Below are positions 4,654 through 40,000 of a stretch of DNA of 40,000 nt, piece after piece. The position numbers and the translations under genes were made by a program. This DNA is from an uncultured Actinomycetes bacterium (GTDB lineage: Bacteria; Actinomycetota; Actinomycetes; Streptosporangiales; Streptosporangiaceae), in contig CAVQFM010000014.1 in the NCBI GenBank assembly GCA_963711705.1, positions 315,296 to 355,295 of the forward strand, written 5' to 3'. Within the stretch, counting starts at the first letter, position 1; every line of letters starts with the position of its first letter. Below the pieces are notes generated by a model. The model searched no databases. It worked only from the letters and a program-made list of their open reading frames with translations, and had not been told where the DNA came from.

Positions 4654-4705
4654 CCAATGGTCCATTGAACAGGACCAATGGATTCGTTTTATGATGGACC
4701 AATGC
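4654..4705. promoter_or_regulatory. Candidate MocR operator: repeated CCAATGG-type motifs in the EamA/MocR divergent region
   Basis: 'ccaatgg' lies at 4654-4660 with its inverted partner 'ccattg' at 4662-4667, forming the near-palindrome caatggTccattg. 'gaccaatgg' lies at 4673-4681 and 'gaccaatgc' at 4697-4705. Spacing is roughly 21-24 bp, and the sequence is an AT-richer island. Confidence 0.4.
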
Positions 4706-6310
4706 GAGCTGGTGTGGTGCGCTTCCAGCGGGCCGGTGAGGGAGCGGACTTCCTGCAGCTGGACCCGGCCGGGGTACCGGTCCGCGGGCTGACCAGCTGG
4801 CTGGTTGATGCGCTGCGCGCCGGGATCGCGGACGGGCGGCTGGCCGCCGGGGTGGTGCTGCCCGCGAGCCGGGCACTGGCTGGGGACCTCGGCGTCTCGC
4901 GGGGGGTGATCGTCGAGGCCTATCAGCGGCTGCGGGAGGAAGGCCTGGTCAGTGCGCGGCAGGGCGCCGGGACGACGGTGCTCCCGGTGCGGCGGCCAGC
5001 CGGGCCGGACGCCAGCCTCCCGGCCGCCGGGCCGCCCCCGGCTGGATCGGGGCTGGCTGGACCGGGGCTGGCTGGACCGGGGCTGGCTGGACCGGGGCTC
5101 GCCGGACCGGGGCTCGCCTGGACCGGGGCTCGCCGGACGGGGGTCGGTCGGGCCGGGATCGGCTGGATTGGCATCGGTGACCGGACCGCTGCCCGGTCTG
5201 CTCCCGCTGCCCTGGCGAGCGCGGACGGAGATCGACCTGTCCCCGGGAGTGCCCGACCTGTCCGCGTTCCCCCGCGCCGCGTGGCTGCGCGCCGAGCGCG
5301 CCGCGCTGGCGCAAGCCGGCGCCGCCGACCTCGGCTACGGGGACCCACGCGGCAACGAGCGGCTGCGCACGGTGCTGGCGGGCTGGCTGGCGCGCACCCG
5401 CGGCCTGCGCGCCGCGCCCGGCGACATCGTCATCGTCACCGGGGTGGCCCAGGCGCTCGCCTTGCTCGGGCAGGTACTCCGGGCCCGCGGCACGATCCGG
5501 ATCGCGGTCGAGGATCCCGGTTCGCGGGGCGCCCGGCTCCAGCTCGCGCACTGGGGCCTGGAACCGGAGCCGGTCCCGGTTGACGAGCACGGACTGCGAG
5601 TCGATGCCCTGATCCGCAGCGGCCTGCCCGCCGCCGTGCTCACCCCCGCGCACCAGTTCCCGACCGGTGTCGTGCTGGCCCCGGACCGCCGCCGCGAGCT
5701 GGTGGACTGGGCCGGCGCCGGCGGCCTCGTCATCGAAGACGACTACGACGCCGAGCACCGGTACGACCGGCCCCCGGTCCCGGCGCTGCAAGCGTCCGCG
5801 CCCGACCGCATCGCCTACGCCGGCAGCACGTCCAAGACGCTGGCCCCGGGCCTGCGGCTGGGCTGGCTGATCCCGCCCCGGTGGCTGCACACCGATCTGG
5901 TCGCCGCGAAGCACAGCAGTGACCTGGGCAGCCCGGCGCTGCCGCAGCTGGTCCTGGCCCACCTGATCGCCAGCGGGGATCTCGAGCGGCACATCCGGCT
6001 GGTCCGCCAGCGGCAGCGGACCCGGCGCAATGCGCTGTTCGCCGCGCTGCGTGAGTTCCTCCCGCAGGCCCGGATCCAGGGCGTGGCGGCCGGCCTGCAC
6101 CTGCTGGTCACGTTCCCGGACCTGGCTGGCCAGCTGGATGACGAGGCGCTGGCCAGCCGGATCGAGGCCACCGGCGTCCTGGTCCACCCGCTGTCCATGC
6201 ACCGGATCGCTCCCGGGCCGCCTGGCCTGGTGCTGGGCTACGCCGCGCACCCGCCAGGTCAGCTGCGTGAGGCGGCCCGGCGCATCGCCAGCGCGGCCCG
6301 GCCGTCCTGA
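4678..6310 (+). pseudogene. MocR/GabR-type regulator (GntR wHTH + PLP aminotransferase-like domain), frame broken in the inter-domain linker
   Basis: The HTH lies in frame 1 ('LPASRALAGDLGVSRGVIVEAYQRLREEGLV'). The aminotransferase fold lies in frame 2 ('DLSPGVPDLSAFP...GYGDPRGNERLR...YAGSTSKTLAPGLRLGWLI'). Removing the T at about 5119 joins them as ...GLAGPGLAGRGSVGPGSAGLASVTGPLPG... Confidence 0.85.
5049..5139 (+). repeat. Six tandem 15-bp units (ggggctSgcYggacc) encoding (GLAGP)n; the fifth unit is 16 bp
   Basis: Read directly. The units occupy 5049-5063, 5064-5078, 5079-5093, 5094-5108, 5109-5124 (with an extra T at 5119) and 5125-5139. Confidence 0.9.
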
Positions 6311-6381
6311 GCCGGTCGCCCGTCAGCCCGGCGGCACGGCCGGCCGGGACTGGGTCGCGGCCGGCCCGGGGAGGGCAGGAG

Positions 6382-6711
6382 CTAGGACGCGTGCCTGGGT
6401 ACGGAGCGCTGGGCGAACTGGGTAGCGCCGCATTTGGGGCAGTGCCGGAACGTGTCGGCGGGCTGGTTCGCCGCCGAGATCGACGTGATCTCCCGGTTCA
6501 GCTCGGCCCGGTCCACGGTCTGGCCGCGTGGCGCGACCGAGATCATGGAGATCGACCGGATCCGCCGCCGGGCGGCTGACCGCGGAACCCGCCACTCGTA
6601 GCCGCACTCGGCGCAGGTTCGCAGGTACTCCCGGGGCTGCCCTGGCCACCGCACAACCAGCATCGTGCGGCTGCGGTGGGCTGGCGTCAAGGGCGCCAGG
6701 CCGGGCAGCAT
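6382..6711 (-). CDS. Small zinc-ribbon protein (two CxxC pairs)
   Basis: 'TCAECGYEW...' and '...HCPKCGATQF' give two CxxC pairs, and GC3 is high throughout. The start is ambiguous (6711 or ATG 6663). No family is recognised. Confidence 0.55.
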   Translation of the reverse strand: MLPGLAPLTPAHRSRTMLVVRWPGQPREYLRTCAECGYEWRVPRSAARRRIRSISMISVAPRGQTVDRAELNREITSISAANQPADTFRHCPKCGATQFAQRSVPRHAS

Positions 6712-6928
6712 CTCTACCGGAACCAGTTCCCTGGTGGGCCTTCGAGCTATGTGGAGGAGATCGTCCAGATCCGGTGCTAAGGTTGGGCGTAACCGGATGA
6801 ATCACTCCAATTACCATCAGTGCGCTGGCCGTGTAACCCCAAGCGGGCTGGCCGTGGTAAACCGCGGGCTGGCAGGCCGTGGACACCCGGCTGATGGCCG
6901 CCGTAACCCTGACTGAGGAGGAAAGATC

Positions 6929-7534
6929 ATGACGACCGGAACGAGCGGGGAGCAGCAGCCGGGCGGTGGCGTGGCCGCGCTGGCCCGGGACGGGGCGCTG
7001 GCCGGCCAGTGGCAGCTGGATCCGGAGCAGTCCACGGTGGAATTCCGGGTACCGCATTTCTGGCACATGATCACTGTGCGCGGCTGGTTCGACCGGCTGG
7101 CGGGCGAGGGCTCGGTGGCCCCCGATGGCACGGTCACCGGGCGGATCACGGTCGATGCCGCGTCGCTGAACACCAAGAACAAGCAGCGGGACAAGCACCT
7201 GCGGTCGGCCGACTTCTTCCACGCGGAGCAGCATCCGCAGGCCGTGCTCACGGTCAGCCGGGCGGCGCTGACGCCGGCCGGGCAGCTGGCGGGTGAGGGC
7301 ACGCTGGCGGCGGCCGGGACCGAGGAGCCGATCCAGTTCACCGCCGACATCCTGGACGCCAGCCCGGACACGGTCTCGCTGCGCGCCGAGATCACCGTGG
7401 ACCGGAGCCGGTTCGGGATGACCTGGAGCCCGATGCGGATAGCGTCCATGCAGGCAACCGGCTCGGTCACCGCCCGGTTCACCCGCTCCGCCGCGAATGG
7501 TGCGGCCCCGGCGGACCCGGACCCGGCCGGTTAG
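6929..7534 (+). CDS. YceI-family polyisoprenoid-binding-like protein
   Basis: GAGGAGG lies upstream of ATG 6929. 'WQLDPEQSTVEFRVPHFW..TVRGWF..L.G...........G.ITVDAASLNTKNKQRDKHLRSADFFHAEQHPQAV' is the typical YceI signature. Confidence 0.85.
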   Translation: MTTGTSGEQQPGGGVAALARDGALAGQWQLDPEQSTVEFRVPHFWHMITVRGWFDRLAGEGSVAPDGTVTGRITVDAASLNTKNKQRDKHLRSADFFHAEQHPQAVLTVSRAALTPAGQLAGEGTLAAAGTEEPIQFTADILDASPDTVSLRAEITVDRSRFGMTWSPMRIASMQATGSVTARFTRSAANGAAPADPDPAG

Positions 7535-8303
7535 CCGGCGGGCTGCTCCTGGCCGGGGTCAGCCCGGCTGGGCCCGCACGCACCCCGCCGTGGCCGGGGT
7601 CGCCTGGGCCGGTATGACCGGGTGGCCGGTGCAGCCGCAGCAGGGCCCGGTACATGGCGGCCGGCGTGGGCGGCGCCGGCAGCGGCGCCCGGCCGGCCGT
7701 GCTGAAGGCCTGGATCATGTACGCGGCAAAGCGCCGCCACGTGCCGGGTGCGGCATCGGCCGTGCCGTCCAGCACGCCGGCGTTGGCCATCAGCAGCATG
7801 GCCAGGTCCTCGGGCACGAAGTCGGCCCGGAGCCGGCCGCTGGCCTGGGCCGCGCGGGTGAGCTGGGTGAAGCCGTGGTAGGCACGGTCGCGTTCGGCCT
7901 GGAATTCAGCGGCCATCGGGAACGTCATGTTCAGGACGCAGGCAAAGCCCCGGTCCTCGGCCTGCATGGCGCACAGCCGCTCGATGAGGCCGCAGAAGCC
8001 CGCCCACGGATCAGGGTCGGCCAGCGCGCGGGTGACCGCGTCGGCGTACCCGGTGATCTTGTCCCCGAACGCCCCGGCGACCAGGTCACCGCGGGTGGGG
8101 AAGCGCCGGTACAGGGTGGCCACGCCGACCCCGGCGCACCGGGCGATGTCCTCCATCGGCACATCCAGGCCGCGCTCGGCGAACACCTGCCGGGCCGCGG
8201 CGATGATGCGCCGCCGGTTGCGCTCCGCGTCGGCCCGCAGCGCTGGCCGGGCCGGGCTGCCCCGGCCCGGCTGCGGCCCGGCGGGCGGCCCTGCGGATGA
8301 CAT
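7479..8303 (-). CDS. TetR-family transcriptional regulator
   Basis: 'RRIIAAARQVFAERGLDVPMEDIARCAGVGVATLYRRFPTRGDL' is a canonical TetR N-terminal HTH. The Pro/Gly-rich tail overlaps the convergent yceI-like gene end by 56 bp. Confidence 0.85.
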   Translation of the reverse strand: MSSAGPPAGPQPGRGSPARPALRADAERNRRRIIAAARQVFAERGLDVPMEDIARCAGVGVATLYRRFPTRGDLVAGAFGDKITGYADAVTRALADPDPWAGFCGLIERLCAMQAEDRGFACVLNMTFPMAAEFQAERDRAYHGFTQLTRAAQASGRLRADFVPEDLAMLLMANAGVLDGTADAAPGTWRRFAAYMIQAFSTAGRAPLPAPPTPAAMYRALLRLHRPPGHTGPGDPGHGGVRAGPAGLTPARSSPPANRPGPGPPGPHHSRRSG

Positions 8304-8312
8304 AGCGCCAGG

Positions 8313-9747
8313 TTACAAGGGAACTGGAATAGATCGTCCAGATAACTGCGGGGTGCTGGAGGTGGCTTTCGGGCCGGGCTGGGACAGGTAAGCACCGATC
8401 TCGTCCGGCCGCGGCGGCCACCGGGGTGCCGTCCGTGCTCACCACGGCCAGGCCGATGTTCGAGTTGAGGGCCAGCGAGCTGACCATGTACGGGAGGATC
8501 ACCAGGCCCGTGGTCTCCCGGCCGAACAGCCCGCGGCGCAGCAGGGCGTCCCGCAGCCCGGCGTAGCTGGTGATGCCCGGGTGTACCGGGACGCTGTGCA
8601 GGGCCACCGCCGAAACCGATTTCTGGTATCCCTGGCCGAAAAGGCTGATGCACATTTCGGCCAGCGAAGCACCCAGGCTGCGCCGCGGGTTGATTTCCAG
8701 CGGGAAGATAGCCCCGTCTGACGCCCGGTACAGGAAATCGATATTCAGCGGGCCCCGGTAACCGATGGACCCGGCGACCTGGCCGATAGCCTCGCCGGCC
8801 GACTGCACCTGGGCCGCGCAGTCGTCAGGCATGGCGCCTAGGCCGAGGTAGGAGCCCATGTAATATTTGCCGGCCTGCAGAATATGGCGCCCAGCGCACA
8901 GCGAGTACGTCGTGCCGTCGTCCTGGACCATGCCGTTGTAGGAAACCGAGAGGGCCTCGTCCCCGGTGCCCAGGAACTCCTCGATAAGCAGATCGCCGTC
9001 GTAGCCGACCGGGACGATCCGGCTGAGTTTCCTGCGGAGCAGCCACCGGCTGGTGACGATCCCCATGGCCTGGCCGCCCGCGCCGAAATCGGTCTTGACG
9101 ATGACCGGGCCGAGTGCCTTCAGTGCGTGCCGCACGTGCTTGCGCAGGTCAGGTCCGCCACCGACGGTCAGAGCCCGGGTGAGCCGCAGCGCTGCGCACC
9201 GTGGCCGGGCCGCCTCGAAATACTCTCGGGCCAGCACCTTGGAATCGAGGCGCCGGGAGGACTCCAGGTAACTGTCCGGGGTCATGCGGTCGATGACCGG
9301 GCGCCTGGAGTTCTTGCCGATGATAGTGACCAGGTGGCTGTACTGGGGAGTGGAGCCAAAGGCCTCGACCGTCACCGGCCCATCGGCTGGGCTGTTATCC
9401 AGCAGTTCGATCACATCGGAGAGCGCGCGTTCGTCAGCGGCCAGATCCGCGCAGATGGAATGGCCCGGCTGCCCGCTGGCCACGGTGCGGAATATCAGGT
9501 TTTCATAGCCCAGGATGGCGCTGATGTCGGCGATATGCGTGTCATCCATCGGATGCCTGGTCACCACAATCTTGCGGTCACCCGACCAGTACAGGGCCAT
9601 CTCTTCTTCTGGGAAGCGCTGGCTGCCCGGGAGCGCCGAGAATTGCGGCAGCGGCTGCCGTTCCGGCTGCTGCGCCCACTCGAGAATGTTGCTGAGGATA
9701 AGCCGGTCGAATCGTGGCTTAACTGGAGCATTCGGCCCAGGATGCAT
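8313..9747 (-). CDS. ATP-grasp enzyme, PGM1-like (pre-ATP-grasp + ATP-grasp peptide-ligase-type); 3' end uncertain
   Basis: 'PVIVKTDFGAGGQAMGIV', 'LLIEEFL', 'GPLNIDFLYRASDGAIFPLEINPRR' fit an ATP-grasp fold with a long N-terminal pre-domain. The raw ORF runs to 8086, 218 nt into the TetR gene, with poor codon usage after about 8410. An alternative frame ends at TAA 8313-8315, so a frame break near 8395-8420 is suspected. Confidence 0.7.
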
Positions 9748-33592: not shown

Positions 33593-33785
33593 AAACAAAT
33601 GCCAGCGTGGACTGGCTGGGAGCGACGGCTGTTGGACGCTGCCGTCCCCTGCCGACACCCCTGCCGTCCAGATCGATAGTCGAGTGATGGTCAAACGGCC
33701 CCGCGCCATGATCACCGCGATAATGAGGTCACGTCCAGCGGTGTGGTGTGTGAAGACGGCACCGCGTGATTCTCAGCTTGGACTT

Positions 33786-34017
33786 TAGGCGGTAATGGCG
33801 GTCAGTGTGACCTCCTCGCTGGTGTTTGCTGGGGTGGGGTTCATCCGGCTCTTCGCGAGGATGTCGAGGCCGATGTAGCGGCGCATTTCGGTCCACTCGT
33901 CGTGCTGTTCGGCCAGGACGGCGCCGACGAGGCGGATCAGGGCGTCGCGGGCGGGGAAGATGCCGACGACGTCGGTGCGGCGGCGGATCTCGCGGTTGAG
34001 CCGTTCCTTTATCCGGC
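33786..34017 (-). pseudogene. IS256-family (mutator-type) transposase, C-terminal fragment
   Basis: The minus-strand translation is '[53 protein letters not shown]...', ending at the TAA at 33786-33788. This is the canonical IS256 C-terminal motif block. Confidence 0.85.
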
Positions 34018-34052
34018 CCTCGTGGCTGGAGCAAGTCGAGGAAGGTGGGCTG

Positions 34053-34472
34053 TCAGCGGTTCAGCCGGTTGAGATGGTCGGTGAGAGCATCGGCGACGCG
34101 GTCGTGACGTGCGGCCTCGCTGTCCCAGCCGCGCGTTTCGGCGTCGGCTTGCAGGTGCCGGACGTCGGCGAGCTGGTCGCCGATGGCGTCGCGGAACTCG
34201 GGGCCGGTGACGAAGTTGTCGCAGGTCTCGCAGATGTTCGCGTAGGGGCACGGCCCGGCGGCCTCGTGCCGGGAGCAGTAGCCGTGGGCGACGCGGGTTT
34301 TGAGCATCTCGCTGTTCAGCCAGCTGACCTTGTCCGGGATGATCGGCTTGCCGGCCGGGGTGAGGGTGAACTGGCGGCGCATCTTGCCCATGGCCTCGTC
34401 ATAGGCCGTGCGCAGGGCCGGTGAGGCCAGGGTGGCGTAGCGGATCGTCATCTGCGGGGTGACGTGTTTTAT
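34053..34472 (-). pseudogene. Tyrosine recombinase X, C-terminal part (catalytic Tyr + Cys-rich tail), separated from its N-terminal part
   Basis: 'IKHVTPQMTIRYATLASPALRTAYDEAM...HGYCSRHEAAGPCPYANICETCDNFVTGPEF' parallels the C-terminus of the recombinase at 35594..37416 (MTMVYARI...NGYCARPVGLDCHFESICESCTFFQTT). Confidence 0.75.
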
Positions 34473-34505
34473 ATGCGGGTGATCCAGAGGCAGTGACATG
34501 ATCGC

Positions 34506-35597
34506 GTGCCGTGGTCTGTCACCGGCTGGAAGGGGAGCCACCCATTGGAGTTCATGCCATGCCTGGTCCGCTCGGCGGCAGACGGTGAGATCGGGAAGAT
34601 CACGCTCGGGCATCCGCTGCTGGACGACTACCTGGTGTTCGTGGCGGCGCGTGCACGGACCAACACCTGGCTTGCCGTGGCCTACGACTTGAAGGTGTTC
34701 TTCGAGGTCGTTGGCAAGGAGCCGGCCGTAGTGAGTGCTGCGGATGTATTCGCTTTCTTGTCCGCGCAGCGCGCCCCTCGCCGCGGGGAGCGGGTCGTGC
34801 GGCTGGAGGACGGCGAGGCGGGCCTGGCGGCACGGACGATCGCCCGGCGGTTGTCGAGCGTGCGGGGCCTGTATGCGTATCTGTGCGCCCGGGAGGACAC
34901 GGGCGTGCGCCGCAACCCGGTGCCGGCCAGCCTGGCTGCCCGCCGGCCGGGCGCACGGCGTGGCGGGGGCGGGATGCCACTGATCCGCACGCCCCGCACC
35001 CTGCCGCGGGTGCTCGCGTCTGCCGAGGTCGACGCGCTGCGGGCGGCGTTGCGGACCCACCGCGACCGGGCCATGGTGGATGCGATGGTGCTGGGCGGGC
35101 TGCGCCGCTGCGAAGTGCTCGGATTGCGGCTGGAGGACCTCAGCACCGGCGAGCGGCGGCTGTTCGTGGCCGAGGGCAAGGGCGGCCGTCAGCGTGTAGT
35201 GCCGGTCTCGGCGCGGTTCTTCGCCGCCGTGGGCGCCTACCTGGAATCCGAACGGCCCGCAGTGGCCGCGACCAGGCAGGTGTTCGTGGTGCTGAAAGGT
35301 GCCCGCCGCGGCGAGCCGCTGTCGGCGGCCGGGCTGGATGAGATCCTTGACGGGGCACGGAGCCGCGCCGGGCTGGCCCACGCGACCTGCCACCAGCTGC
35401 GCCATACCTGTTTCACCCGGCTGCGGGAAGCGGGCATGGCGCTGGAGGCCATCCAGGCCCAGGCCGGTCACGCCTCGATCGAGTCGACTCGCCTCTACCT
35501 GCACCTGGCGAACGGCTGGCTGGAGGAGGAGTACCTGCGGGCGGCGGAGGCAATCGAGGCGCAGGCCGTCCTGCCCGCCGGGGAGGCCGGCCGGTGA
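34506..35597 (+). CDS. Tyrosine recombinase (phage-integrase family), inner element gene 1
   Basis: Catalytic residues are visible: R in 'LGGLRRCEVLGL', 'HQLRHTCFT', and Y in 'IESTRLYLHL'. An N-terminal SAM-like core-binding domain is present (FLSAQRAP...ARTIARRLSSVRGLYAYL). The start may be ATG 34554. Confidence 0.85.
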   Translation: MPWSVTGWKGSHPLEFMPCLVRSAADGEIGKITLGHPLLDDYLVFVAARARTNTWLAVAYDLKVFFEVVGKEPAVVSAADVFAFLSAQRAPRRGERVVRLEDGEAGLAARTIARRLSSVRGLYAYLCAREDTGVRRNPVPASLAARRPGARRGGGGMPLIRTPRTLPRVLASAEVDALRAALRTHRDRAMVDAMVLGGLRRCEVLGLRLEDLSTGERRLFVAEGKGGRQRVVPVSARFFAAVGAYLESERPAVAATRQVFVVLKGARRGEPLSAAGLDEILDGARSRAGLAHATCHQLRHTCFTRLREAGMALEAIQAQAGHASIESTRLYLHLANGWLEEEYLRAAEAIEAQAVLPAGEAGR

Positions 35598-37416
35598 GCG
35601 GATCACCAGCCCGGCGCCCGGCCGTCGAGGACCTGGTCGACGCCTACCGCAACGACCTGCAGGCTGCCGGCATGTTCGCTGGTCATCCGGTTACCTCGGT
35701 GGCCCGCATGTTCTTCACCCGGGTTGGGCCCGAGGGATGGGCCTACCTGCCGCTGGCAGCCCAGTGCGCCCTGCCGCTCAAGGACCGGCGGGTGGTCGGC
35801 TGGCTGATCGTGACGGGGCGGCTGCGTCCCAGCCCCGACTACCTGGTGGCCTGCCGCCCCTACCTCGGTGAGTTCGCCGCCCGTCATCACCGTGCGTTCT
35901 ATGAGCGCTTCGCCGCCACCTCCGCCGAACTCGGCTTCGGCCCGATCGTGACCCGCCTGCAATGGTCGGCCCTGGCCAAGGTGACCGCAGTCGCCGGACT
36001 GGGACCCGGGCAGGTGACCCAGGCCGTCATCGACGAAGGCAGGCAGGCGCTGACCGCCGCCATCGGCCGTCACCACCCCGGCAGTCACGGCCCCAAGGCG
36101 CTCAGCGCGGCATTGTTCGGATTGCAGACCACCTTGTTCCACCTCGGTGTGCTCGGCGCCGCTCCCCGCAAGACCAGCCCTGACCGCTCGGCTGAACGGG
36201 CCGCGCAATGGGCATCGGCGCCGCCGCAGCTGGCGTCCACCCTGACCGGCTACATCGCCCAGGTGCGCCTGTCGCTGCGAGCCTCGACCATGGTGCGCGT
36301 CGAGGGCGTGCTCCGCGAGTTCGCCTGCTGGCTGGCCGGCAACGCCCCAGAGGTCGGCTGCGTCGCTGACCTTCGCCGCCGCCACATCGAGGCCTACAAA
36401 CTGCACCTGGCCGGCCATCGGCCCGCGGCGGGAACCTGTCCAAGATCAGCCTCGCCGAGCACCTCGGCGCGCTGCGCACCTGCTTCGAGCGGCTCACCGA
36501 GTGGGACGGCGACGACGTCCCCGCCGCGGTGCTGGTGTTCTCCGGCGACCTTCCGCTCCGCGACGAGCCGCTGCCCCGCTTCCTGGATGACGGCGCGTTC
36601 ACCAAGCTGCTGCAGGCCACCCGCGCCGACCCCGACCCGTTCGTCCGCCTGGCCGTGGAATTCCTGGCCCGCACTGGCCTGCGCAAAGGCGAGTTCCTCG
36701 ACCTCACCGTCGACTCCGTCGTGCAGATCGGCGCCGCCTACTGGCTCCACGTGCCGCTCGGCAAGCTCCGCACCGACCGCTATATCCCACTGCACCCCCA
36801 GCTCAAAGACCTCCTCGACGCCTGGCTCGCCGCACGGCCCGCCAGCCTGCGCACCCCCTACCTGTTCACCGAGCACGGCCAGCGGATCGGGCAGGGCCGC
36901 GTCGACCGGGCCGTCGCCAAAGCCGCCCGCGCCGCCGGGATCGGCCACGTCAGCCCGCACAGGCTCAGGCACACGCTGGCCACCCAGGCCATCAACCGGG
37001 GCATGAGCCTCGAGGCCATAGCTGCCCTTCTGGGCCATCGATCGATGCGGATGACCATGGTGTATGCCCGCATCGCCAACCGCACCGTGGCCGAGGAATA
37101 CTTCGCGGTGTCGGAGAAAGTCGAGGCCCTCTACGACGCCCCGAAGAACCTGCCCGCCGGCGCGGAGGGCACCGAGATGCGCAAGCTCCGCGCCGAAATG
37201 CACCAGCGGATGCTCGGCAATGGCTACTGCGCCCGCCCCGTCGGCCTGGACTGCCACTTCGAGTCCATCTGCGAATCCTGCACGTTCTTCCAGACCACCA
37301 TCGAGTTCCGCCCCACCCTCGAAAAGCAGCGCGACGATGCCGCCGCCAAGGGCCAGGCCGGGCGCAAGAAAATCTTCGACGGGCTGCTGTCCCGCCTCAG
37401 CGAGGCAGCCTCCTAG
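35594..37416 (+). pseudogene. Large tyrosine recombinase, inner element gene 2, one frame break
   Basis: A GTGA overlap joins it to gene 1. The N-terminal ~275 aa lie in frame 2 up to '...HIEAYKLHLAGHRPA'. The continuation 'NLSKISLAEHLGALRTCF...ARTGLRKGEF...HRLRHTLAT...MTMVYARI...' lies in frame 1. The break falls at about 36420-36436. Confidence 0.8.
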
Positions 37417-37446
37417 CATGATCAACTTGACAAGATCACCCGCATA

Positions 37447-38421
37447 ATGTCCCATCAGCTCCCGCAGCGCCAGCAGGTCAATGCCCGCCGCGGCGAGCTC
37501 GGTCCCGTAGGTATGCCGCAGCCGATGCGGGCGAACCCGGGCCGCCCCGGATGCCTCCCGGTGACGGCGGAACAGGCTCCGCAAGCCCGCCTCCGTGACC
37601 GCAGCGCCGGCAGTCGGGCCGCGCAGGACCACGAAGCACTCGGGGGTAGCCAGGCCAGGCGGACGTTCCAGCCGCAGGTAGGCGGACAGCTCGGCAAAGA
37701 ACGCCGGGTCGACCGGAACGTGGCGCTCCTTGCCGCCCTTACCGATCACCCGCAGGCGACGGCGGCCCATGTCAGCATCGGCGAGCTTCAGGCCGCGGAC
37801 CTCCGTGGAGCGCAGCCCGCCCAGCAGCATCGCCAGCGCCATGGCCCGGTCCCGGTGCGTGCGCAGCGACGACACGAACGCATCCACCTCGCTGGCGGGC
37901 AGGGACTCTGGCAGCCGACGGGGCTGGCGCACCAGCCGGCCCCCGCCACGGGAACGACCCGGGCCCAGGTGACCAAGCAAGCCGCGTGCCGCCGGCCGTA
38001 GTCCCTGACCCCGCCGCGGCGACGGCACCGGATTGCCGGTGAGGGTCCCGGTCATCACCAGGTACTCGAAGAACGCACGGACCGCCGCGACCCGGCGGTT
38101 CACCGTCGATGCCGCCGCGCTCCGCTGCCGCAGCGCCACGACCTTCCCACTTCCGGCCGGGCCGTCGCGGCGGGCACCCTGCCAGTTGACCCAGGCGAAG
38201 ACGTCCACCGGCGTCACCTCCGCCAGCCTGATGCCCTGCCCGGCAAGGAACCGGGCGAGGTTCACCACGTCGAACGCATAGGCCCGGGTCGTGGCCCGGC
38301 TGAACGCCCGCGCCTGAAGGTGCGCCAGGAACATGTTCGCCGCTGCGGCACCATCCCAGTCACCGGCGACCCGGTGCTCGCCGTTGACAAGGTGAACCTG
38401 AACCGTCATCGCCTGTCCCAT
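37447..38421 (-). pseudogene. Tyrosine recombinase X, N-terminal part (core-binding domain + R...HxxR)
   Basis: 'MGQAMTVQVHLVNGEH...STVNRRVAAVRAFFEYLV...LGGLRSTEVRGL...HRLRHTYGTELAAAGIDLLALRELMGH', after which homology is lost at the inner-element end. The remainder of the 765-aa ORF is read-through or antisense. Confidence 0.75.
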
Positions 38422-38519
38422 CTGCCGCAGGTATCCGGCAGCATCCACCCAGCCCGGACCGGGCGGGCGGACCTCAGGCGGCCAGACAGACCGTGTCGCC
38501 CGAGAGCCGGTTAACAGAT

Positions 38520-38767
38520 AGCGGGTTGTTGGACCAGATCTGCCGCCAGATCGCCTTCGGGAAGGCGGTGAAGGCCAGGATGTCAGCGCGGGCGGCGTCC
38601 AGGTGCGCGGCGACTTGGGGCAGCTTGTCTTCCAGGGCGTCCAGGACCCGGCCGAACTGGGCGTGCACCGAGGCGGCGTCGGGCTGGTCATAGACGCTGT
38701 GCAGCAAGGCGCGGACCCAGCCCCACGCGGACTTCGGTGTCACGCTCATCAAGTTCGCCGCGTAGTG
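38520..38767 (-). pseudogene. IS256-family transposase, middle fragment (N-terminal ~250 aa missing)
   Basis: 'HYAANLMSVTPKSAWGWVRALLHSVYDQPDAASVHAQFGRVLDALEDKLPQVAAHLDAARADILAFTAFPKAIWRQIWSNNPL' is the IS256 region just after the third catalytic residue. Upstream homology ends at about 38767. Confidence 0.8.
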
Positions 38768-38868
38768 AGCTTGTAAGGATTCAACCTGGCGTTTCGTGTT
38801 CTGTTTCGTTTGGGATGGATGCGATGAGTGTGGCTGCTGTCGCGTACTGCTGGGGGTGCTGGGACTGC

Positions 38869-39589
38869 GGTGTAGCCGTCAGCCTGGAGCAGTGGCTGGA
38901 CGTCGTCGATGGCATTGCGAATGGTGCCCCGGCTGACGCCGAACAGGTTGGCGAGGGTCTGCTGGCCGCATAGCCGCCGCTGGTCCAGCACGGTGGCCAG
39001 AATCCGGTCTGCGTCGGTGATTTTCTGGGCGAAGACGCCGCCGCGGGTTCCCGGGAGCCGGTCGCCGCCACGCTGGTGGTGGCGGCGCCGCTCGACGGCG
39101 GCTTGGTAGGGCACGGTGACCCGTCCGATCAGTGCCCGCAGGTCCTGGCGGGGCATGCCGGTCAGGCTGGGGTGGGTGAGTGTCTCGCAGAGCAGCATGC
39201 TGGGGGTGGCCGTGCCGTGGTCGCACCACTCGCGCAGGTCCTGGGCGCGGGAGAAGTAGTGCGGTGTCTGGGTGATGGTGACGTGCTGTTCGTTGATGAG
39301 GGCCCGGGTCTCTTTGATCGCCTGGCTGATGGTGACCGGGTTGGTGCCCAGCAGGTCAACCAGCACCTTCTGGGGGCAGAGGCGGCGCAGGTAGATGACG
39401 GTGACCAGGACTTTGTCGGCGGCGGGTCAGCAGCGGCCGGCCGTGGTCACCATGGGCTTTCCGGCGCGGCCCGCCGCGTTGCAGGTATTTGCGCTGCTCC
39501 GCCAGGGCGGCTTGGCCGGGAGCCAGTCGCTGGCATAGCGCCCGCAGCTCATCGCCTGTCATACCGGTCACCCCCGGGTCAGCCAGCAT
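38869..39589 (-). pseudogene. Two tandem truncated copies of the N-terminal HTH_Tnp_4-type region of a DDE_Tnp_4 (IS5/Harbinger-like) transposase; no DDE domain
   Basis: Copy 1 (about 39589-39245, with a frame break) reads 'LADPGVTGMTGDELRALCQRL...QRGGPRRK...ADKVLVTVIYLRRLCPQKVLVDLLGTNPVTISQAIKETRALI'. Copy 2 (about 39195-38869) reads 'LTHPSLTGMPRQDLRALIGRV...QRGGDRLPGTRGG...ITDADRILATVLDQRRLCGQQTLANLFGVSRGTIRNAIDDVQPLL'. Confidence 0.65.
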
Positions 39590-39649
39590 CGCCGAGATAG
39601 CCCGCGCCCTGGCCTGGTCCCGGTCACCCGCGGTGATGACGGGCCGGGC

Positions 39650-40000
39650 TGCTGAACCGGTAGGTGCGATGGTGTAGTTCCAGGTTCCCGTGGTACTGAT
39701 GAGGTGTGATCGGCAGTGACTGCAGATACTCGTGGCTCATCGGAGATCCCAGTCGGATAGTGTTGGTGTCCAGCTCGGCATGGATCCCGCAGCCCAGTAC
39801 GGGTGCGCGTGGCCGCGATGCGGTTCACCACGACCTCGCGGCTGACCAGGGGCCTGCCACGCCAGTTCTCGGTGATGTGGCAGAACAGCCGGTGCTCGAT
39901 CTTGTTCCACTTGCTGGTGCCCGGCGGGAAGTGGCAGACGGTCACGGTCAGCCCGACCTCGGTGGCGAACGCGGCGAGCTCGGATTTCCAGAGCCGGTAG
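39650..40000 (-). pseudogene. ISAzo13-type transposase, C-terminal part, multiply frameshifted; continues beyond window
   Basis: 'YRLWKSELAAFATEVGLTVTVCHFPPGTSKWNKIEHRLFCHITENWRGRPLVS' is clean. After '...TRTGL', the expected 'HAELDTNTYPTGI..SHEYLQSLPITPHQYHG.WNYTIAP' is spread over three frames between about 39680 and 39790. Confidence 0.75.

Follow-up and report, generated by a model that had tools for sequence, protein, structure and literature searches.

A probable three-level nest of two-recombinase elements in an IS256-family transposase gene of an uncultured Actinomycetes bacterium, and the mobile-element genes occupied by related elements

Analysis of a 40,000-nucleotide stretch of DNA from an uncultured Actinomycetes bacterium (contig CAVQFM010000014.1, positions 315,296 to 355,295; hereafter the window) revealed what is very probably a three-level nest of selfish elements: an inner element with two tyrosine recombinase genes (E1) lies in an outer element of the same general kind (E2), which in turn lies in an IS256-family transposase gene. 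Nesting of this kind had been proposed in an earlier note on this DNA and was seen in the window and in its relatives. The comparative results lean, by a modest margin, towards a broader interpretation: E1 and E2 represent a widespread actinobacterial family of cargo-free two-recombinase elements that are obligate parasites of other mobile elements. The lineages of this family would have changed their target many times, to codons for conserved and probably catalytic motifs in IS256, IS3 and ISL3 transposases and in tyrosine recombinases, including the genes of sister lineages, which gives nests three deep.

Layout of the nest

The features that make up the nest are given below from the outermost level inwards; L001 and L007 are related loci in other genomes used for comparison.

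38521-38767, minus strand: IS256-family (Mutator-type) transposase, middle fragment (Transposase_mut positions 262-337; homology to L001 from 38767; junction sequence)
33791-34008, minus strand: IS256-family transposase, 3' fragment, starting AG GAA CGG CTC (Transposase_mut positions 338-378)
38515-38520, minus strand: E2 left-end spacer TATCTG (lineage-constant, not host sequence)
38501-38514, minus strand: E2 left arm TTAACCGGCTCTCG (at a fixed distance upstream of tnpA in all E2 loci)
37448-38409, minus strand: E2 tnpA', short tyrosine recombinase, residues 1 to about 321, ending ...LRELMGH (homology to L001 tnpA)
34053-34464, minus strand: E2 tnpB', C-terminal fragment from HVTPQMTIRY... 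to a Cys-rich tail and stop (DNA alignment to L001 from 8591)
34009-34022, minus strand: E2 right arm CGAGGGCCGGATAA (conserved across E2 loci)
34465-34484, plus strand: E1 left end, spacer TGTTTTA at 34465-34471 and arm TATGCGGGTGATC at 34472-34484 (conservation)
34506-35597, plus strand: E1 tnpA, short tyrosine recombinase (Pfam Phage_integrase and SAM-like domain)
35594-37416, plus strand: E1 tnpB, long tyrosine recombinase of about 607 amino acids (aa) (alignment to the intact 608-aa L007 copy)
37434-37447, plus strand: E1 right arm GATCACCCGCATA and constant A (conservation among copies)

The outermost host is an IS256/Mutator-type transposase gene, split on the minus strand. Pfam Transposase_mut profile positions 262-337 and 338-378 flank the insert and are contiguous across the healed junction, so nothing of the host is missing or duplicated at this point; a split without target duplication had been reported earlier and is supported here. 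The middle fragment ends ...IWSNNP followed by C, the first base of a Gln codon, and the healed host reads NNP-Q-ERLN (C^AG GAA, the caret marking the insertion point). E2 was thus inserted within the codon that precedes the Glu of NNPxERLN, after its first base, with neither duplication nor loss. The insertion had been placed within a motif NPLERLN, but the L of that reading comes from element bases. The Glu of this motif is presumably the E of the DDE triad. The transposase gene is itself 5'-truncated at about 38767, and its 5' two-thirds are gone.

Sequence constant among E2 loci sets the ends of E2 at 34009-38520 (4512 bp including the inner element), in place of the 34018-38519 (4,502 bp) given before. 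Its outer ends form imperfect inverted repeats, in agreement with the earlier description: TTAACCGGCTCTCG (38514-38501) and TTATCCGGCCCTCG (34009-34022) match at 12 of 14 positions.

E1 occupies 34465-37447, which is 2983 bp with an uncertainty of 2 nt either way for a dinucleotide shared with the target. These ends take in 7 nt beyond the left arm and 1 nt beyond the right arm, which are the same in every copy (5'-TGTTTTA-TATGCGGGTGATC ... GATCACCCGCATA-A-3'). The perfect 13-bp inverted repeat described for the inner insert (TATGCGGGTGATC at 34472-34484 and 37434-37446) holds, while the length of 2,974 bp does not. The inner pair of plus-strand genes joined by a GTGA overlap was also found as described, the start GTG of tnpB overlapping the stop of tnpA at 35594-35597, but the second gene is frameshifted: compared with the L007 copy, it lacks 4 bp (AGCC) near 36412. 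The open reading frame (ORF) of E1 tnpA starts with GTG at 34506; the start conserved among homologues is ATG at 34554 (347-350 aa), M17 is nearly invariant, and the homologues are 93-96% identical. E1 tnpA is 40% identical to E2 tnpA. E1 is antiparallel to its host, a tyrosine recombinase gene, which it interrupts precisely at the His codon of the LxGH box. Both insertions sit in highly conserved motifs (LxGH and NNPxERLN), as had been claimed. Inversion of a 3-kb segment between the 13-bp repeats was considered and rejected, since flipping the segment restores neither gene.

Judged from the sequence, all three levels of the nest are now defective: the IS256 gene is truncated at its 5' end, E2 is gutted and E1 tnpB is frameshifted.

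The recombinase gene interrupted by E1

According to the earlier note, the outer element encodes one recombinase, X, cleanly split by the inner insertion. Comparison with intact homologues points instead to two genes: X is the N-terminal part of E2 tnpA' and the C-terminal part of E2 tnpB', apparently joined across a deletion associated with E1. When the reconstructed X (464 aa) was used as query, nearly all matches were proteins of 350-354 aa, up to 84% identical, which cover only the first 75% of X and diverge from it directly after ...LRELMGH. The tnpA' part, which lacks the catalytic Tyr, is 88% identical to residues 1-321 of L001 tnpA, whose homologues have 350-354 aa. The tnpB' part corresponds to about residues 509-645 of the intact protein and is 74-80% identical to the C-termini of tnpB in L002 and Mycobacterium xenopi.

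The gene order in L001 and L002, two loci of one genome, is IS256-N (353 aa), short recombinase (354 aa), long recombinase (616/646 aa) and IS256-C. At the DNA level, window positions 38767-37446 align with L001 5643-6964 (86%) and positions 34466-33727 with L001 8591-9341 (83%). Missing from the window are the intervening 1626 bp (L001 6965-8590), which comprise the end of tnpA' and the first approximately 500 codons of tnpB'. The breakpoints are homologous codons of the two paralogues, CTG ATG GGT CAT/TCC in tnpA and CTG CTC GGG/CAC GTC in tnpB. Absence of this sequence at homologous codons identifies E2 as an ordinary two-gene element that is now gutted, and the 1.63 kb missing between the GH codons of tnpA' and tnpB' creates the illusion of one split gene. 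The intact E2 type is a cargo-free element of about 3.1 kb with a short (about 354 aa) and a long (about 646 aa) tyrosine recombinase.

A single 464-aa recombinase interrupted by a 2974-bp insertion is very unlikely. Its joined halves do give one continuous Pfam Phage_integrase match, and a 460-aa single-gene hybrid of tnpA and tnpB with E2-type ends (P0026) exists at loci L003 and L004. However, the two parts of X resemble different genes (84-88% to tnpA, 74-80% to the tnpB tail), X is only 58% identical to P0026, the 1626 bp present in L001 are missing, and the proposed join adds three residues (GH-IK-HVTPQ). In P0026, A-like sequence gives way to B-like sequence about 15 residues upstream of GH, so that P0026 represents an event independent of X in the window; it shows that one-gene A/B hybrids can form in other ways. 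The element that encodes P0026 (L003 455-1975, also L004) is 1.5 kb long and lies in an ISL3 gene, not in IS256, and may represent a minimal derivative or one mobilised in trans.

Another observation concerns E2 tnpA'. A 13-mer at 37744-37756 (codons LRVIGKGG) matches the E1 right arm at 11 of 13 positions (GATCACCCGCAGG), and is conserved in the M. xenopi copy (L011 9829-9841). It may be a coincidence or a putative secondary binding site.

The same nest in relatives

The complete genome of M. xenopi (AP022314.1, locus L011) carries, in order, IS256-N, a full tnpA', tnpB' residues 13-510, an inner two-gene element in the opposite orientation, tnpB' residues 507-645 and IS256-C. Healing of the M. 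xenopi tnpB' gives a stop-free frame of 659 residues, with E1 at the LLG^H codon and nothing lost. The undeleted nest was also found twice in Mycobacterium sp. SM1 (L028, L029) and at a locus of a metagenome-assembled genome (L032), and in part at L025 and L037. E1 interrupts only E2 tnpB in the relatives that carry the nest. On the evidence of these assemblies the nest is real and recurrent, and the nest in the window derives from an undeleted arrangement of the M. xenopi type.

These loci also bear on assembly error. Repeats of this kind break short-read assemblies, and many relatives lie on contigs of about 3 kb, so that a chimera between repeated recombinase genes could be imagined. This explanation is barely credible, as both inner junctions are canonical E1 ends known from more than 50 other sites, and the nest occurs in the complete genome AP022314.1 and in many independent assemblies.

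Insertion sites and targets of E1 and its family

The earlier note had proposed a search for further copies and empty sites. Copies of both elements and healed hosts were found, but the reconstruction of X failed against intact homologues. E1 copies that are about 95% identical over all 2983 bp sit in wholly different flanks. Near-identical copies occur in at least eight different tyrosine recombinase genes, always antiparallel, and cut at L-x-G^H-x-x-x-x-T-x-x-Y. The spacer TGTTTTA is constant at nine distinct insertion sites of its lineage, with the flanks diverging directly outside it.

A scan of species-representative genomes with the tnpA alignment as query identified 80 loci of the E1 family, 65-93% identical and almost all in Actinomycetota. 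The 13-bp arms are conserved across the family; the 7 nt outside the left arm are lineage-specific, as is the host gene. After removal of the spacer, arms and trailing A, the host healed in frame without gain or loss at about 45 of about 51 distinct sites. Tyrosine recombinase genes interrupted at LLG^H make up about 20 of the approximately 51 sites, followed by IS3/rve-type transposases at W^[WFY][YF]N..R.H (about 18), ISL3 transposases at IGIDE..^Y.KG (five) and ISL3 transposases at ..LG^HRG.K.DPLY (two). Pfam matches to Phage_integrase, rve/rve_3 and DDE_Tnp_ISL3 spanned the junction in nine healed hosts. The ISL3 sites with LGHRG carry the spacer that otherwise targets tyrosine recombinases, which suggests that E1 recognises a DNA sequence, roughly CTN GGN CAY, and not a protein family. 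In the E1 lineages the spacer opens with a dinucleotide (TG, GT or CT) that is identical to the first two bases of the target on the other side of the crossover.

Since insertions are precise and scarless and excision would restore the reading frames, the elements might be programmed switches comparable to the nifD element or to skin in sigK, with the IS256 transposase and the E2 recombinase kept off until excision. This is highly improbable: a developmental setting in the host is lacking, the elements occur in many copies, on plasmids and with variation between strains, and the window copies are dead (truncated IS256, deleted E2, frameshifted E1).

The lineage-specific N-terminal region of TnpB is a candidate target-recognition module. 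AlphaFold modelled its 277 aa (window 35594-36424) as all-helical with a pLDDT of 91.8, and a Foldseek search of PDB with this model gave no significant match. Many database proteins of the E1 TnpB type (P0243-P0342) end at 464-482 residues, about the position of the LLGH box. Nesting of E1 in E1 was considered as an explanation; in the single context checked (L106), an ISL3 transposase gene follows instead.

Insertion sites and targets of E2

All 17 E2 loci (window, L001/2, L011, L019/20, L032, L101-104 and L107-112) lie in Transposase_mut genes, and in all of them the host is broken one base into the codon that precedes Glu, NNP Q/L/I ^ E R L/V N. The host transposases are 45-85% identical to the reference, while E2 tnpA stays at 72-88%. 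The constant ends are TATCNG-TTAACCGGCTCTCG ... CGAGGGCCGGATAA, and the spacer position reads TATCTG, TATCCG, TATCGG, GATCGG or TGTCTG in 16 E2 copies. The E2 copy at L103 is reversed and its host breakpoint is moved by exactly 6 nt (AGGAAC^GG), the shift expected of a 6-bp staggered central region. E2 occurs without E1 at at least 12 loci.

One of these E2 loci has an unusual layout. In the Rhodococcus plasmid pRB98 (L019, 4679-8264), E2 is flanked on both sides by IS256 residues 270-353 in inverted orientation, which suggests inversion or recombination between two oppositely inserted copies.

Evidence for and against targeting

Sequence-specific targeting of mobile-element genes, one of two suggestions made earlier, is well supported by comparative data, namely by many independent insertions in other genomes. 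Several results weigh against it or against parts of the account given here. About six of the approximately 51 E1-family sites could not be placed in a gene family. Comparison of element arms and spacers with their targets gave no convincing similarity beyond the E1 crossover dinucleotide, and none for E2. In Mycobacterium sp. SM1, a 5.4-kb block of E2 containing E1 occurs at two loci with 99.8% identity and was duplicated as a unit; not every nest is therefore an independent insertion. The E2 copies of L001 and L002 are identical, and their IS256 flanks are about 100% identical for approximately 190 bp and then about 70% (4700-9300). Some E2 copies may thus have spread by gene conversion and not by site-specific insertion, and the use of L001 and L002 as proof of independent E2 insertion was downgraded, as such an identity gradient is typical of gene conversion. 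The frameshift in E1 tnpB could be a sequencing error. More than one route could have led to the 1.63-kb deletion, and all steps of the mechanism proposed below are read from static junctions.

The strongest form of this objection is that there is no targeting, the nest having formed once and spread as a composite by IS256 transposition in trans, by recombination or gene conversion between IS copies, or by vertical descent. The identical E2 copies and proximal flanks of L001 and L002, the duplicated block in Mycobacterium sp. SM1 and the presence of the same nest in several mycobacteria all fit such a history. We nevertheless consider it unlikely, as near-identical E1 copies occupy at least eight unrelated recombinase genes, sister lineages occupy IS3 and ISL3 genes at one motif with in-frame healing, E2 occurs in IS256 hosts that are only 45% identical and in one reversed copy with a 6-nt offset, and E2 is often found alone. 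Gene conversion at L001/L002 and duplication in SM1 explain neither the unrelated hosts of E1 nor the divergent hosts and the reversed copy of E2.

Proposed mechanism

TnpA and TnpB would together excise the element as a circle. The joined ends would read GATCACCCGCATA-A-TGTTTTA-TATGCGGGTGATC for E1 and CGAGGGCCGGATAA-TATCTG-TTAACCGGCTCTCG for E2, and the predicted circle junctions are ...GATCACCCGCATAA joined to TGTTT(T/G)ATATGCGGGTGATC... and ...CGAGGGCCGGATAA joined to TATC(T/C/G)GTTAACCGGCTCTCG..., respectively. Such ends would form a core like lox, FRT or dif, with inverted arms of 13-14 bp around a central region of 6-8 bp; the arm and spacer geometry of a lox/dif-type core is present in the predicted joined ends of both elements. 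The core would then recombine with a target within the codons of a conserved, probably catalytic motif in the enzyme of another mobile element. In every insertion the element spacer lies beside its left arm and the matching bases of the target lie beside the right arm. This pattern fits an exchange between circle and target that takes place at a single border of the central region, the situation known from Xer-dependent integrating elements.

The most likely origin of the 1.63-kb deletion in the window is recombination of the E1 junction in tnpB' with the similar LMGH site in tnpA', a gene of the same orientation. Exchange between two E1 copies, one inserted in tnpA' and the other in tnpB', would be an alternative.

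Comparison with known systems

The earlier note's second suggestion, a previously undescribed two-gene transposon, does not hold for the class. Actinobacterial tnpA/tnpB pairs related to Tn554, including a TnpC-less subgroup on pREL1, pRHL2, pSCP1 and pBD2, were named by Van Houdt et al. 2012 (PMC3414803). That class (Famint36/41) was defined from protein clusters only, and its ends, core site and targets were not reported; the similarity to Tn554 was given as 'data not shown' and Famint41 was called 'less related' (PMC3414803). In the pREL1 (NC_007491) copy, two genes of 341 and 611 aa overlap; the identity is 63.6% to E1 tnpA and 77% to the tnpB tail of the L007 copy, which is of the E1 lineage. 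On this homology, with which the layout agrees, E1 belongs to the actinobacterial Tn554-like class without tnpC. The elements share with these pairs adjacent, co-oriented and overlapping genes for a short (about 350 aa) and a long (more than 600 aa) recombinase, the lack of a third gene and of cargo, and multi-copy occurrence on plasmids and chromosomes of actinobacterial hosts. E2 forms a separate branch, its tnpA being about 40% identical to that of E1, and the cluster assignment was made for E1 only. The class is thus already known, while the target logic and the core-site architecture appear to be new. Our literature search found no account of the ends or targets of these elements; most subscription journals lay outside its coverage, and prior work is possible.

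Tn554 of Staphylococcus aureus encodes TnpA (361 aa), TnpB (630 aa) and TnpC (PMC10214605). As in Tn554, insertion is site-specific and largely orientation-specific, without target duplication and apparently with a 6-bp central region at the junction (PMC10214605); duplication-free insertion was found at about 45 E1-family and 17 E2 sites. Intact relatives of E1 and E2 likewise encode two recombinases (347-354 aa and 608-646 aa), both with Phage_integrase matches and with HxLRHT and GH..Y boxes. Unlike Tn554, E1 and E2 have neither tnpC nor resistance cargo, they show clear inverted arms of 13-14 bp, and their targets are genes of other mobile elements. They end about 30 bp past the tnpB stop, which leaves no space for a third ORF. 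While Tn554 and SE elements carry a 6-bp footprint of the donor site (PMC10214605), the 6-7 nt beside the left arm of E1 and E2 are fixed and heritable: they are lineage-constant across at least nine targets and unlike the central sequences of those targets. A tblastn search of 72,556 plasmids with the TnpB C-terminal tail gave 59 matches, nearly all in Actinomycetota and none in Staphylococcus. A 2023 overview recognises five groups of tyrosine-recombinase transposons, with Tn554-related elements only from Staphylococcus and Enterococcus (PMC10214605).

A likeness to recombinase in trio (RIT) elements had been suggested on the basis of three recombinases with inverted-repeat ends. RIT elements carry three co-oriented overlapping genes, ritA-ritB-ritC, per unit and terminal repeats of about 34 bp (PMC3414803, PMC10214605). 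The elements of the window resemble them in having several genes for Xer-like tyrosine recombinases that overlap slightly, inverted repeats at the termini, no cargo and a frequent location inside mobile DNA. The window, in contrast, holds no trio but two independent, antiparallel two-gene units, each with its own arms (13 bp in E1, 14 bp in E2) and each found alone elsewhere, and membership in RIT was rejected. A search of NCBIfam gave only sub-threshold matches to Xer, integron and invertase families, and no family name.

The inverted arms around a central region of 6-8 bp, and a pattern that would reflect one-border exchange without central homology, recall CTX phage at dif and Cre-lox. The recombinases are element-encoded here, unlike the host XerCD used by CTX phage, and the target is a protein-coding motif, not dif. 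SE elements also use few specific targets, one of them an IS3 gene (insJ), and lack mobilisation genes (PMC10214605). Compared by description, they differ in that they need four proteins, carry cargo and leave a donor-derived 6-bp footprint.

Surroundings of the nest in the window

The surroundings of the nest are a graveyard of insertion sequences. Beside the cut-off IS256 gene, on the minus strand, lie a 205-aa ORF with weak similarity to HTH_Tnp_4 and a fragment of an ISAzo13-type DDE transposase (38749-39366 and 39568-39945). On the other side, a 34-nt direct repeat, 88% identical, occurs at 33508-33541 and 33693-33726, 185 bp apart, and its second copy abuts the IS256 right end. Between the copies, at 33560-33590, the minus strand resembles the 3' end of a tRNA (tggagctgaggggatttgaacccct); ARAGORN found no tRNA in the whole window.

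Significance

If the broader interpretation is true, these elements would be naturally occurring, evolvable site-specific integrases with the effect of disabling transposons. The codons for catalytic motifs in other transposons would be their habitat. This would be a clear example, among prokaryotes, of one selfish element preying on another, and one with a measurable effect, as each insertion inactivates a transposase or a recombinase. In actinobacterial genomes and plasmids, the family would also account for many split transposase pseudogenes and 'XerC/XerD-like' gene pairs. Probable ends, core site and targets are now provided for a class of tyrosine-recombinase transposons without a resolved mechanism, and related recombinase pairs with different defined targets of about 30-40 bp would offer a natural series for the study of specificity change in tyrosine recombinases.

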